Assembly: GCA_000182565.2 (NCBI GenBank)
Contig: KQ257454.1
Source: Spizellomyces punctatus DAOM BR117
Taxonomy: Eukaryota
Direction: 5' to 3' (one strand)
DNA: 64,000 bases
Below the pieces are notes generated by a model. That model made no database searches. It was not told the origin of the DNA and saw nothing but the letters and a program-made list of their open reading frames with translations. Shown in pieces: positions 15,109 through 51,310 of the stretch. Made by a program: the position numbers and the translations under genes. Numbering within the stretch: the stretch's first letter is position 1; each line of letters opens with the position of its first letter.

Positions 15109-16391
15109 ATGTCATATCAAGATTTGGAAGTGCGTGTGGAGGGAGGCATTGGTACAATTACATTGTCTAGGGAGGAGGTAGGTCCCGCAAGTACATCATC
15201 CCACCGCGAAACGATCGATTAAGCACGTTAAAATCCCGTTAGAAATTCAACAGTTTCAGGCAAGGAACTTACTCAGCATTGCAGCAAGCATTGCAAGACT
15301 TGGCGGAGCGAGATGATGTCAGTATAACGGTGCTGACTGGAAAGGGCAAGTTCTTCAGTAGGTGAGCGGCCTGTGCCCTTTTTCTGGTATTTGATATTGT
15401 CCAATGGCTCAACCAGCAAACGTCGGTATCCAGTGGTGCAGACTTCACAGAGGAAAGGGAAGCTCCAAAATCCAAACATGAAGCTTGGGTCAAGTTTAGA
15501 ACTGTCCTCGAATTTGCTACCGCGGCAGTCACACGGGCGGTAATTGACCACCCAAAGCCATTGGTAGTGCTGTTGAATGGTGACTATCTATTACAAGGCT
15601 GCCACATTGTGACACACTTACAGATTGTTCTACTTGTTACCAGGGCCGGTGATTGGATATCCCGCTGGCGTCATTGCGAATGCGGATATCATCTATGCTG
15701 CCGAGTCTGCATACCTTTCTTGCCCATTCTCCTCCCTTGGACTTTGCGCGGAAGGTGTGTATCTGTGAAAGACCTGGTTTACACTGGTTTATCTTAGCGT
15801 TTCGGAGTTCTAAAAGTAGCATGACGTCATTATAGGAAACTCATCGTTGGCGTTCGTGCAAAGAATGGGGCTGGGCCCGGCGCAGGAAGCACTGGTAGGC
15901 AGGCAGATACCCGAATTCTCAGCCAAAAGGAAGGCTTACGATTCGCATTATTTAGCTGTTTGGCAAACGCTTCACTGCACGGGAGCTAGAGAAAGTCGGG
16001 TTTGTCAAGTACGTTGGCCTTTCATCGTCATTGCCCGTTGAGCTCCAGGTGTTGATATTCGCTTCCCGCTGTAGCCGAGTGTTCAGCAATGAGGAGTTCG
16101 CTTCCGAAACGACTAAATTACTACAAGGAGCAGTGAAGACATGCCACCCAACTTCCATGCTAGTGACAAAACGGCTCATTCGATCTGCTTTCAAGGACCA
16201 ACAATATAAGACCCTCATGCATGAAACAGATGCCCTTACAGAACGGTATATGTCTGGTGACCCCGCGATAGCATTCAAGAAGCTGATGGAGCGTAATGGT
16301 AAGCGACACTCGAATATACGCCGTGCGCACCATTTGATCCTTTTCCCGTCAATCCTATTTAGCTGCTAAATCTCGTGGTAGCAAGCTCTAA
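15109..16391 (+). CDS. Peroxisomal crotonase-family enzyme, probably delta3,delta2-enoyl-CoA isomerase (ECI1/ECI2-like)
   Basis: ITVLTGKGKFFSSGADF, DHPKPLVVLLNGPVIG, PFSSLGLCAEG; ends AKSRGSKL* (PTS1). Confidence 0.85.
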
Positions 16392-16709
16392 TTTCGGTAT
16401 TGAGCAGTACCTCCCTTAGCGCTGTAAAGCTATAAATAAACTCATTCAGTTTTGACTTCCAAAATGCGTAAGAATTGTTTCAAAATCATCTCAATTTACA
16501 TATGTACAAAAGAAGGCCATGCTCAATTTTCTGCATAATAATTGCTCAAGTCGCCAATGTTCTCCACATCGCTAAAGACAAAACGGACCCGCATTGGACC
16601 GACTTTGATCCTTTAGAGAAAGCAAAAGGAATTTCTCATGGCAAGCATCCGCCTATCACATCCCGAGTTTATATGTGATGTCTACAGCATACTCTTCTCT
16701 CAAAGATTG

Positions 16710-17275
16710 CTACTGATCGAACCCGTACAAAGTACGGCCTTGCCTGTATTGAGATATGTCAAAGCAGAACCAAACACAAAAAGAATATGAGTTATACCTT
16801 TTGAGGGCATACACCACGTCCATGGCGTTGACAGTCTTTGCACGGCGGTGCTCCGTATATGCAATAGAATCTGATGTCGTCATGTTAATGATAGCCAACC
16901 CGCATACTCTTACGAGGCCCAAGCCCGTACCTTTAAGAACGCCGGTAAGAAATTTCTTAAGAACGATGCGGACCTCTGTTTTTATGGCAAGCTGATTAGC
17001 CAAGTTCATTTCGCACAGGACGGCGTGCGGGCCATTATCTCACCTTCATAAATGGTCAGCGACATTCTCTTCACACCACCTCTTCGTGCAAGCCGTCTGA
17101 TCGCCGGTTTTGTAATTCCTTTCAAATTATCTCTGAGGACCAGTCTATGCCGCTTCGGTGTGCCATAATTTGACAAGTTGATGCCAGACGGTCCCTTTCG
17201 TTTTATACCCTTTCCTTTGCCTTTACCGCCAATACCAACACCCAAACCCTTTCCTCCTGCACCTCGTCCACTCAT
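16710..17275 (-). CDS. Divergent histone H4 variant, 127 aa, 4 exons (17044-17275, 16931-16975, 16798-16870, 16710-16743)
   Basis: Three GT-AG introns splice to [127 protein letters not shown]. Confidence 0.93.
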
Positions 17276-17718
17276 GATGTGACGATGGGAATGTGCTTCT
17301 GGAATGCGCAAGCTTTTGACAGGAAGGCTGTCAAGGACCCATCCATATTACGTAAACATCAAGTGATCTGTCGCCGAATGACTCACAACATCCCAACATC
17401 CGCTCGACAGGCGAACCCTAAACCATTCTGATAGCAGGGAATAACGTCAGTCAAGCTGAAGCAGCTCCCAGTCGATGAGAAAAGTGTCATCTGTCACTTG
17501 TAGCTTGTGTGTTTGCTGGATGCCTATCTGCCCGTGCATGGGTTGACATACTGAGACTGCTTAAATTACGGGTCCCAACCATGCACTCTTTTCGATCATA
17601 TCACTACGAAAACCTGATTGACACCGCTGGTTAGGAAAACTGAAATACAAACCTGTCAGCAACATTCAAAATCAAATAATATTACACACTTTCAAAGAAA
17701 TTCTATCTAAATAGTCAG

Positions 17719-19566
17719 TCATGAACAAATGTCCCCTAATATGCACTCATCATGTATCGCCCTCAACGCCGTCTCTGCCCTCTCTTCTTCAATGACACAG
17801 GAAATATTTATCTCAGACGCTCCCTGCGATATCATTTCAATATTCACGTTGTGCTTCGCTAATGTCTCAAACATGAGACCCGCTATCCCGACCATATTTC
17901 GCATCTGCTTCCCTACGAGGGAGAGAATCGCCATGTTCCGAATCACATCCACCTGCGGAGAAAGACATTTCGTGTTAACTCACGTTGCATTAAAGACGTA
18001 CAGGCACTGCCCAAAGTGCTTACCGTTCCATATTTTCGTAGCTCAACCAAAGCCCGTTCCAGTTTGCTTTCCTTTACATTCGGGCTTAATGCCATGCTTA
18101 CATGAACCTCAGAGGTGGATATGAGATCGACTACAATGCCATATCGGTCGAGGGCCAGGAATATGTGAGCAAAGAAACCATGCGACACGGACTTGCGATT
18201 AGAATGGACGTTGAGGACAATGACATGATCTTTGATGGTGACAGCTGTTGGTCGTTTTTGGTCCTCCGATAAGGCCAGGCCGTTTCCATTGGGTGTTTTG
18301 CTGCCAAGGTAATCCTCTCCAAGTTTGGGTATCCGTGTGCCTCCAGGTGTGAGGCATTCAATGGACTCGGCGTGTTGAGGCGGCACCCAACCTTCTGGTA
18401 TAATTACAGTACCGTCTCCATCTGGTTTGAAGGTATTTTTGATCCTGATGGGAATGCTGGCCCGGATGACCTGTTCCATAGTGAATGGATGAATGACTTC
18501 CGAGCCATAGTACGTCAACTCAGCAGCTTCTTCTGGGGAGATGGAAGCAAGTAAAAGCGCCTTAGGCGCCTTTCGAGGGTCGGCCGTGAATATGCCGTCA
18601 ACCTCTTTCCAGATCTGCAGCTCCCGTGCAGCCACTCCAACCGCAATCAAAGCAGCGGTCAAGTCCGTATAACCTCGCCCAATGGTCGACAAGATACTTC
18701 CTGGGACAGGTCCCAGGTAGCCCGTTACAACAGGAACTGTGTTTTCCCCACAACCCTCAATGACCACTGCAAGCCGTTGTGTTAGATAATCATAAAAGGT
18801 TTGGTCGATCGCCTTTTCATCAAATTGTGCTTCAATAAGTTTTTCCAGATTCACGTAAACGGCGTCTACACCCTGACATGGACATGTTGATCAGATGGTC
18901 AGAGCCATGAAAGCGAAACGTAGACAGCGAATATTTTCAGTTACAAACCTGGCTTTGCAACAAGGCGGCAAAGATACGTGCTGACAGTTTCTCGCCTGTA
19001 CTGATCATGACATCTCTGGACCGTGGAGATATTTCATCGATCACTTCGGCGGCCGCCATAAACGATCGCAAGCGAGAACATTCGGCCTTTACATCTCGCT
19101 CCGCCTCAGCCCGTGCGGGACCTTCAGCGACCGCATTTTCTATTGTTTTCAGATGCCCCTCTTCGATGATGTTCACAATATCGAGGTATCGTTGTGAATT
19201 CGGCTTTAGCACCTCCTTTGCTGCCTCGAGGAGTCTATCCAAAGGTACATTACAGTGAGATATGCGACCAACATACGTGAATCCACCAGGACTTATTACC
19301 GGCTAGTGGTTCCCTCAGCCTTTTTGTGGCTGCTCATGGCAGAGAGAACGACAATGACACGGTTTGATTTGAGGTTGGACCTGCACGCAAAAGTGTTTGA
19401 GACAACGCATCATCAATACCACAGAGAAACCAGGAGTAGGGAAAGTAGGGAAAGTAGGGATCCGCACATACTTTACAATCTCCGCCACTTCCAGCATGCG
19501 CTCGGCACTTCCGACGCTGGTTCCCCCATACTTTTGAACAACTATCGGGAGCGCAGGTTTCGCCAT
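17719..19566 (-). CDS. HOM3: Aspartokinase with two C-terminal ACT domains
   Basis: VVQKYGGTSVG, GEKLSA, IGRGYTDLTAAL, WKEVDGIFTADPRK, EAAELTYYGSEVIHP, VDLISTSEV, NIEMISQGASEINIS. Confidence 0.96.
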
Positions 19567-50747: not shown

Positions 50748-50914
50748 ATACTTACCTGCTACGAGGTTCGCTGTGATCAGGAAGGCAGCGCCTGTTTGGG
50801 ATTCTCGACAATGCACGCCTGCTTCGAGAGCTTCAGATTCCCTGACCTTTGGGGTCAGAGGAGGTGGATAATTTTTGTTTGTGGGAGGGATCTGCGTTCG
50901 CGCTGTCCGCTCCC
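50748..50914 (+). ncRNA. U1: U1 spliceosomal snRNA (about 167 nt)
   Basis: 5' ATACTTACCTG; SL I cgctgt-GATCAGGAAG-gcagcg; SL II ttctcga-cAATGCAC...-tcgagag; SL III ctgacc...ggtcag; Sm site ATAATTTTTG; SL IV with gcgTTCGcgc closed by gggag/ctccc. Confidence 0.97.
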
Positions 50915-51310
50915 TATTCTCATGATTTAGGAAGAAAAGAAATGATGTTCGCTACATTTGCCATTTGCAGGCTGATTGATGAAAGGCATTCCAGCAGCAT
51001 TTAATTCATGCCATTCAAGCGTAGCATGTAGCCAAGCAAGCGAATTCCATGGATATGGGACATTGTGGTTGCAGTTCTAGTTGGTTTTGCCCTGGAGGAA
51101 CCAACTGTCGTGTCGAAGGGATGAATCAACGACCGTCACATCTTTTGCGTTAGACTTTACTATTGCATTGACTATATACACAGCGTTGCTGACGAAAACC
51201 ACCTTAAATCATGCCCGATCCCAGTCATACGCATTTTATCCGCCCCGATAATGTATTATGCAAACCCCTCCCCATCTAGTATGCCTAACCATCCTACTCT
51301 GCCAGTCGAT

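Follow-up and report, generated by a model that had tools for sequence, protein, structure and literature searches.

SPPG_03268 is a divergent histone H4 gene of the chytrid Spizellomyces punctatus DAOM BR117. It lies on the minus strand at positions 16710-17275 of a 64,000-nucleotide stretch of contig KQ257454.1 (assembly GCA_000182565.2) that we analysed as a whole and refer to here as the window. H4 is the least variable of the core histones, and very few variants of it have been described. Sequence comparisons indicate that SPPG_03268 is a genuine H4 variant gene maintained by selection in the Spizellomycetaceae, and probably in the Rhizophlyctidales as well. We propose, with moderate confidence, that its product is a nucleosomal, replacement-type H4 that marks a subset of nucleosomes and whose proximal tail would be largely unmodifiable; that it is a functional variant, taken by itself, we hold more firmly than this whole statement. 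The gene is already annotated publicly, only as an uncharacterised protein. Literature searches turned up no account of an H4 variant in chytrids, and the name SPPG_03268 occurred in 0 papers.

SPPG_03268 encodes an H4-like protein with a tail insertion and an altered core

Joining four exons on the minus strand yielded a coding sequence of 384 nucleotides, specifying 127 residues and a stop codon. Exon 1 (17044..17275) opens with the ATG at 17275-17273 and holds codons 1-77 and the first base of codon 78; it codes for the entire N-terminal tail, α1, L1 and the start of α2. Upstream of 17275 there is no in-frame ATG before a stop at 17348-17350. Three introns, all GT..AG, separate the remaining exons: intron 1 (16976..17043; 68 nucleotides, phase 1, within the codon of canonical E53), intron 2 (16871..16930; 60 nucleotides, phase 1, within the codon of canonical D68) and intron 3 (16744..16797; 54 nucleotides, phase 2, within the codon of canonical R92). 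Exons 2 (16931..16975) and 3 (16798..16870) measure 45 and 73 nucleotides, and the coding part of exon 4 (16710..16743) ends with G-F-D-Q and the stop codon TAG at 16712-16710. The exon 1 translation is identical to residues 1-77 of protein P0002 in our searches, and the full 127-residue product is letter for letter the same as P0002, which is XP_016609505.1/KND01466.1, labelled "uncharacterized protein" by NCBI and "Histone H4" by UniRef. A precomputed database list also carries the curated H4 profile Pfam PF15511 for this protein.

Residues 38-125 of the product can be matched with positions 14-101 in solved H4 chains (E ~1e-37). For individual substitutions we used the canonical H4 part of P0320 as reference, over 87 core columns running from K16 to the end. 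Across these columns 65 residues are identical (~75%) and 22 differ: K20L, I26L, Q27K, I46M, G48L, L49T, T54V, G56I, V60K, E63T, N64G, I66L, R67K, A69S, V70I, T71A, A76R, K77R, R78A, T82N, G101D and G102Q. Canonical H4 is near-invariant and carries lysines at 5, 8, 12, 16 and 20 of its tail; SPPG_03268 has, besides the core changes, A5, V12, L20 and 24 extra residues. The two proteins share fold, core length and the R17-H18-R19 patch, and are identical over G28-R45 and A83-F100. They differ in that SPPG_03268 lacks K5, K12 and K20 at the aligned positions and that neither a 3' stem-loop nor, in the window, a nearby H3 gene was found for it.

The locus is likewise unlike that of a canonical, replication-coupled H4, for which linkage to an H3 gene or a histone cluster would be expected. 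SPPG_03268 was the single H4 match by tblastn in the window, and a six-frame search of the window with short motifs found no H3, H2A or H2B motif. An Rfam scan for the histone 3' stem-loop (Histone3), at E up to 10, gave no match at the gene.

These results bear on an earlier note, made from the DNA letters, that had described an intact 127-residue H4-like reading frame with three GT-AG introns. The joined exons and the identity to the NCBI protein confirm that frame. Every core change the note listed (Q27K, V60K, EN>TG, K20L and the GFDQ end) is found among the 22 of 87, and its 24 extra residues before K16 correspond to residues 14-37 in the alignment to solved chains. Its K5>A and K12>V hold at the aligned positions, with the caveat that calling K5 and K12 lost hinges on how the tail is aligned and that the insertion brings in five lysines in G-K repeats. 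Its description of the gene as solitary, with no neighbouring H3, stands as a statement about the window.

Predicted structures are consistent with an ordinary H4 core. An AlphaFold2 model built from a 24-row alignment has helices at residues 41-52, 56-64, 67-100 and 108-117, with a predicted local distance difference test (pLDDT) score below 50 for residues 5-40 and of 85-92 over residues 71-120. The ESM Atlas model matches H4 clusters with template modelling (TM) scores of 0.61-0.67, from about residue 31-42 onward. Together with the alignment to solved chains, the models show the α1-L1-α2-L2-α3 arrangement of an H4-type histone fold. They indicate that the core is a normal H4 fold and that the insertion, which lies distal to the basic patch, lengthens a disordered tail.

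The gene is transcribed and spliced at intron 3

We mapped about 6% of one raw-read RNA run (X5), which carries the same species label as the DNA, on positions 16000-18000. In all, 1067 reads mapped, of which 889 were ≥99% alike. The library reports strand, because a plus-strand neighbour yields plus-sense reads. Minus-sense depth was 53-76 over 16469-16736, spanning the 3' untranslated region and exon 4, and 19 over exon 3. Eight reads from 7 starts carried a joint that skips 16743-16796/16744-16797 (54 nucleotides, CT..AC on the plus strand), corresponding to intron 3. A further 21 reads stop at 16745, and the consensus of their loose letters starts with the exon 3 sequence at 16800-16815. 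SPPG_03268 is therefore transcribed in the sense direction, with intron 3 spliced, and at the RNA level the lack of expression that the earlier note had named as a contrary outcome did not occur. Three other read sets (X1, X2 and X3) gave unspliced contigs, pointing to DNA or pre-mRNA, and expression rests on the RNA run.

The same reads outline the ends of the transcript. The 3' untranslated region is ~240 nucleotides long (16469..16709, minus strand), minus-sense depth dropping to 1-2 below 16469. The 5' untranslated region covers 17276..17339 (minus strand), with an approximate upper limit; minus-sense depth was 1.5 in 17273-17339 and 0 above. At 16511, in the 3' untranslated region, 11 of 48 minus-sense RNA reads (9 starts) have C where the plus-strand DNA has A, which may reflect allelic or strain variation or else editing.

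Orthologues point to constraint on the histone core

Searching with the 77 residues of exon 1 returned 5639 proteins at E ≤0.001 among 7386 candidates, and the best 120 were listed. Named chytrids account for five rows among these best 120 of 5639, including SPPG_03268 itself. Another of the five is a canonical H4 from a Lobulomycetales species, in which an intron is retained. The other three were P0012 from Gaertneriomyces sp. JEL0708 (106 residues, last exon missing), P0010 from Rhizophlyctis rosea (74 residues, exon 1 only) and a second R. rosea protein, P0048 (119 residues). A full-length search added P0207 from Spizellomyces sp. 'palustris', and a cluster look-up gave P0378 from Gaertneriomyces semiglobifer, a complete protein of 116 residues that ends G-F-D-V. 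In the NCBI taxonomy Spizellomyces and Gaertneriomyces belong to one family, the Spizellomycetaceae, and Rhizophlyctis to another order. All five orthologue models (P0002, P0207, P0378, P0012 and P0010) have open frames; three of the five are truncated or mispredicted by annotation, not by stops.

Intron 1 is read through in P0207, a mispredicted model. Of its 112 exon-derived residues 108 are identical to S. punctatus, and of the 25 residues in the read-through block only the last 8 match the translation of the S. punctatus intron. Matching exons around a diverged intron are the pattern that would be expected under purifying selection on the protein. R. rosea P0010 has the same G-x-G-G-K-G-K-G insertion, together with K12M, K20L and I46M. 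Both Gaertneriomyces proteins have R at positions 16 and 20. Across the five orthologues position 20 reads L, L, R, R and L, and is K in none.

Changes in the core are shared and unevenly placed. Of the 87 core columns, 22 depart from canonical H4 in S. punctatus and 26 in G. semiglobifer, and only 11 distinguish one species from the other. The two proteins have 15 derived states in common, located mostly in α2, L2 and the C-terminus: I26L, Q27K, I46M, L49T, T54V, E63T, I66L, R67K, A69S, V70I, T71A, A76R, R78A, T82N and G101D. By contrast, there are 0 changes in the 36 positions of G28-R45 (α1-L1) and A83-F100 (α3 to the C-terminal strand); random placement gives P = 7e-7 and 2e-8 for these two unchanged segments, which were chosen after seeing the data. 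In a 29-row tree (99/97) and in a 32-row tree alike, the three Spizellomycetales rows group together as a starred clade. Transcription, the orthologues, the unchanged 36 positions and the 15 common derived states argue collectively that SPPG_03268 is a real variant, neither a standard H4 nor a decaying copy.

The same note called the variant lineage-specific. That term applies at the level of a family at least, the Spizellomycetaceae, and probably of two orders, not of one species. Among the matches listed there was no orthologue in other chytrid orders, and since these lists were swamped by canonical and fused H4 proteins, absence there is not shown. Full-length and profile searches (best 120 each) consisted mostly of tandem H4-H4 fusion models and added only P0207. 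A search of representatives gave 6594 matches; the best 150 listed were mostly canonical H4 with mispredicted extensions, and 12 of these that we examined included no named chytrid orthologue. Scanning metagenomes with exon 1, we found at least 590 stretches that matched the pattern, of which 15 encode a relative and 0 of the 15 has the tail insertion; these 15 are intronless, protist-like H4s that match an R-R-G-G-V-K-R-M pattern. As a side observation, full-length H4 queries return models of 160-520 residues that fuse two H4 copies, or an H4 and a neighbouring gene, and divergent H4 paralogues are thereby masked in such searches.

The tail insertion is retained among relatives and varies in length

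The 24 extra codons (residues 14-37) lie at 17165..17236 on the minus strand; the exact placement depends on the alignment, solved H4 chains starting at residue 38. The insertion precedes a G-T-P-K-R-H-R segment and contains the five lysines in G-K repeats. Ahead of the basic patch, the S. punctatus tail contains 6 K and 2 R, compared with 3 K and 1 R in P0121, an H4-like protein with a tail of canonical length. S. punctatus and S. 'palustris' differ at 2 of the 24 residues. In Gaertneriomyces the insertion has 13 residues in the same place, with a homologous G-P..(I/V)-N-L..Y...P motif, and the tails before the basic patch have 3 K and 1 R, and 2 K and 1 R.

We also considered how the insertion arose. 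A stretch of 56 nucleotides within it (17208-17153, minus strand) starts with GTATAA, like the intron 3 donor, and ends with AAG before the R17 codon. Canonical H4 models that retain introns in this same region of the tail occur in Gongronella (P0018, between K16 and R17) and in a Lobulomycetales species (P0029, at K20). An origin as an exonised intron is suggested by these features and only suggested; GC content and GC content at third codon positions (GC3) gave no signal of it. A hidden intron that removes the insertion in the main form of the transcript was considered and rejected, as no in-frame pair of splice sites restores a canonical tail by our own reading of the list of pairs, and the pairs across a bin of low RNA depth (17139-17205) would remove the H4-homologous basic patch.

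A proposed replacement-type H4

The segments α1-L1 and α3 to the C-terminal strand carry most of the H3 and DNA contacts of H4. Because G28-R45 and A83-F100, the parts that hold H3 and DNA, are unchanged, the protein is predicted to pair with H3 and to replace canonical H4 in a subset of nucleosomes. In such nucleosomes position 20 could not be methylated as a lysine and position 12 could not be acetylated; K5 would be missing too in Spizellomyces and K16 in Gaertneriomyces, the tail keeping R17-H18-R19. The suggestion in the earlier note that the variant escapes K20 methylation fits these sequences, none of the five orthologues having K at position 20. The distal tail is modelled as disordered and would be longer by 13-24 residues.

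Changes outside the conserved segments may have consequences of their own. T71, A76-K79 and T82 lie near the L2 loop, which binds DNA, and near the four-helix bundle that H4 forms with H2B; the last residues of H4 contact ASF1 and the docking domain of H2A. The fixed changes T71A, A76R, R78A, T82N and G101D would thus alter the surface that faces H2A-H2B and its modification state, and probably dimer docking or the choice of chaperone. The gene is solitary in the window, has introns and has a long 3' untranslated region in which no stem-loop was found; this suggests that the protein, like a replacement variant, is supplied independently of the bulk of histone synthesis in S phase.

Several observations weigh against this proposal or parts of it. 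Missing stem-loops and poly(A)-type ends are reported for ordinary chytrid histone loci too, in the available passages of a preprint (bioRxiv 10.64898/2026.10.14.759114), and the argument for a replacement variant from the 3' end is weak for that reason. Deletion of the conserved H4E gene in Aspergillus nidulans gave no phenotype, according to the relevant passage of PMC10878826, so conservation is no guarantee of a measurable role. The curated H4 profile PF15511 scores the product at 26.9 bits (E 5e-6), compared with a cut-off of 28.1. In the RNA run, depth over exon 1 was thin (0.2-8), and no joint was listed for introns 1 and 2, where depth was low. One bin inside the insertion (17139-17205, minus strand) had a depth of 0.22, compared with 8.09 and 2.01 in the adjoining bins; under the general caveat on read mapping, depth dips in conserved genes are no finding, and this one may come from noise, from the filtering of reads or from a minor isoform. 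Exon 1 contains 63 GT..AG pairs of 40-120 nucleotides, 23 of them in frame. One in-frame pair, 17208..17131 (78 nucleotides), matches the dip, and its use would delete the H4-homologous K-R-H-R-L-V-L-R; the insertion may be spliced out in a minor isoform. Its presence in the mature mRNA rests on its conservation as protein and is not seen directly in the reads. For the R. rosea gene, orthology is judged from the 74-residue model P0010, whose row in the 32-row tree has a long branch and stands next to an H4E-like row (91/64). Finally, for a separate canonical H4 in S. punctatus there are indirect hints only: passages of one preprint refer to "seven core histones CDS" (coding sequences) of this species (bioRxiv 10.64898/2026.10.14.759114), and those of another, from a study that cultured strain DAOM BR117, describe acetylation of H4 K5, K8, K12 and K16 as pan-eukaryotic (bioRxiv 10.1101/2021.11.30.470311).

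Comparison with the fungal variant H4E/H4v and other explanations

Fungi have an H4 variant known as H4E or H4v (A. nidulans hheA, AN12228; Neurospora crassa NCU04338). H4E is reported from Pezizomycotina, basal Taphrinomycotina and Glomeromycota in the parts of the survey that we draw on (Flipphi et al. 2024, PMC10878826); the terms "chytrid" and "Spizellomyces" have 0 occurrences in the text of that survey. Passages of a 2026 preprint (bioRxiv 10.64898/2026.08.11.744009) state that Neurospora H4v binds H3 and ASF1, that its deposition is strictly dependent on SAD-6/ATRX and found at repeats, telomeres, and tRNA and rDNA loci, and that it is reported in the replacement-histone role held by H3.3 in animals. 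Section 2.1 of the survey gives the H4E gene model as seven introns of phases 2, 1, 2, 0, 0, 0 and 0, separated by exons of 29-32, 16, 88, 60, 18 and 21 nucleotides (PMC10878826); the same paper notes that Glomeromycota H4E genes lack this characteristic pattern. SPPG_03268 has phases 1, 1 and 2 with 45 and 73 nucleotides between, and at most one intron position could coincide. H4E is longer at both tails; in SPPG_03268 the N-terminal tail is longer by an internal insertion before K16, not by an N-terminal extension, and the C-terminus has canonical length. The two nevertheless resemble each other in being solitary (SPPG_03268 within the window) and intron-rich, with a conserved histone fold and a divergent, longer N-terminal tail that retains a basic patch.

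For trees we used eleven Sordariomycete proteins from the exon 1 search that we ourselves labelled H4E-like by names, taxa and extensions; all H4E-like rows are Sordariomycetes. The 29-row tree was built without the exon 1 row of R. rosea and without two H4E-like rows that were defective, and P0207 was in neither tree. With protist H4 as outgroup, the Spizellomycetales clade was sister to nine H4E-like rows in the 29-row tree (82/65, not starred), and a branch of the 32-row tree parted canonical rows from the variants and H4E-like rows (92/85). In the 29-row tree an approximately unbiased (AU) test did not reject a clade with the fungal canonical H4 rows (p 0.188), and the same held for a union with P0048 (p 0.18) and for one with the unnamed metagenome protein P0258 (p 0.17). 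Four derived states recur in the H4E-like rows: R76 (9/9), D101 (9/9), V54 (6/9) and A78 (4/9). V54 is found in the solved canonical H4 chain 7xay_E as well.

SPPG_03268 could be read as an early-branching member of the H4E/H4v lineage that works like Neurospora H4v. ASF1 would then bind it together with H3, and an ATRX-like remodeller would place it, independently of replication, at the same kinds of loci to serve genome surveillance. The sister placement, the 92/85 branch and the shared states, R76 and D101 above all, speak for this, as do the longer N-terminal tails with a recognisable basic patch on both sides (PMC10878826, section 2.1); neighbours of the Atlas model that include Ascomycota-dominated "Histone H4" clusters of 139-149 residues offer a lead only. 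We nonetheless regard this reading as doubtful. The joining branch is unstarred, the AU test leaves the canonical placement standing, and two long branches may attract; one of the shared states, V54, is not peculiar to variants. The introns differ in number, phase and spacing, the chytrid proteins stop at G-F-D-Q or G-F-D-V where the 9 complete H4E-like rows run past G-F-D, and K20 is kept in the H4E-like rows and lost here. The H4E-like rows are, moreover, our own labelling from a single class, chytrids do not figure in the text of the survey, and SAD-6-dependent deposition and the ASF1 complex are known only for Neurospora H4v. Because two defining features are not shared and the sister placement is unstarred, membership in H4E/H4v is not established by these sequences.

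Two further explanations were considered. The product might be a stage-specific packaging histone whose longer, more basic tail aids compaction, for another life stage or for the condensed zoospore nucleus that the earlier note had suggested. The 6 K and 2 R of the Spizellomyces tail, against 3 K and 1 R in P0121, would suit such a role, and so would the lack of K20 and, in Gaertneriomyces, the change of K16 to R, which leaves a basic patch that could not be acetylated. The extra charge is not conserved, however, the two Gaertneriomyces tails having 3 K and 1 R, and 2 K and 1 R, and S. punctatus core histone genes are described as enriched in multinucleate stages compared with zoospores in passages that do not name SPPG_03268 (bioRxiv 10.64898/2026.10.14.759114). 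We consider a packaging role very unlikely. Alternatively, the gene could be a dispensable duplicate drifting to loss, or could encode a histone-fold protein that no longer enters nucleosomes. Its core has diverged much more rapidly than that of canonical H4, with 22-26 of 87 positions changed, its Pfam score falls below the cut-off (26.9 compared with 28.1) and its C-terminal end is altered by G101D and by G102Q or G102V; the description of hominid H4G in a passage of the Neurospora preprint (10.64898/2026.08.11.744009) and the A. nidulans deletion without phenotype (PMC10878826, in the passage cited above) lend such a fate some plausibility. Against it stand the intact frame and all needed intron positions, the open frames in 5 orthologue models, the 108 of 112 exon residues identical between congeners around a diverged intron, the 0 changes in 36 positions of α1-L1 and α3, and a transcript spliced at intron 3, and we judge decay or exclusion from nucleosomes to be highly improbable. 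Our preference remains a replacement-type H4 that enters nucleosomes.

Other divergent H4 proteins and neighbouring features

Trypanosome H4.V, rice H4.V and hominid H4G belong to unrelated lineages and were set apart by description, not by sequence. The roles given for H4.V and H4G in passages of a preprint (transcription termination sites, stress or development, the nucleolus; bioRxiv 10.64898/2026.08.11.744009) give no direct lead for the chytrid protein. Five unnamed metagenome H4-like proteins, P0258, P0103, P0104, P0040 and P0121, have H, L, L, L and C, respectively, at position 20, and loss of K20 thus recurs in uncharacterised H4 paralogues. P0258 resembles the chytrid variant in its long G-K repeat tail and in T63, S69, I70 and D101, and ends Y-G-Y-D-S; all five differ from it in having no tail insertion of the Spizellomycetales type. 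The second divergent H4 of R. rosea, P0048, has an N-terminal extension, V20, T63, L66 and A71, and ends G-F-G-S-T-L-D. The trees join none of these six proteins to the variant clade. Kinship between P0048 and the Spizellomycetales variant is not rejected (AU p 0.18), though neither is it shown.

SPPG_03268 is flanked by an amino-acid-kinase (aspartokinase-like) gene on the same strand and by a convergent gene on the plus strand. The convergent neighbour has a 64-nucleotide GT..AG intron at 16298-16361 (plus strand; 9 reads from 7 starts), and its transcript ends at ~16468, abutting the 3' end of SPPG_03268. The open reading frame in its last exon, 15956-16369, had no Pfam match. Between the 5' end of SPPG_03268 and the 3' end of the amino-acid-kinase gene, plus-sense RNA reached a depth of 6-32 over 17407-17741. 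These reads run divergently from the SPPG_03268 promoter, the open reading frames there are all ≤51 residues and no Rfam match was found; they may represent an unannotated, divergent non-coding transcript. Elsewhere in the window, a gene for U1 spliceosomal RNA lies at 50748-50915 (plus strand; Rfam RF00003, 80.9 bits, E 2e-18).

Implications for fungal H4 variants

The resemblance to H4E/H4v raises the question of how old a second H4 is in fungi. We think it rather unlikely that the chytrid gene and H4E/H4v go back to one ancient duplication, and unlikely that the ancestor of chytrids and Dikarya already had a dedicated replacement H4, handed from ASF1 to an ATRX-like remodeller, that was then lost many times. 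Were this true, the Spizellomycetales form would be the earliest-branching survivor, remodelled by a tail insertion that is possibly an exonised intron.

Under the reading that we prefer, SPPG_03268 would be a second fungal H4 variant, conserved and expressed, in a lineage near the base of the Fungi. It would offer a natural experiment: a nucleosome that does without H4K20 and H4K12 and whose H4 tail is lengthened by 13-24 residues. S. punctatus is a genetically tractable chytrid, and to that extent tagging and localising the protein should be feasible. The variant may also bear on the time at which fungi first gained a replacement H4.

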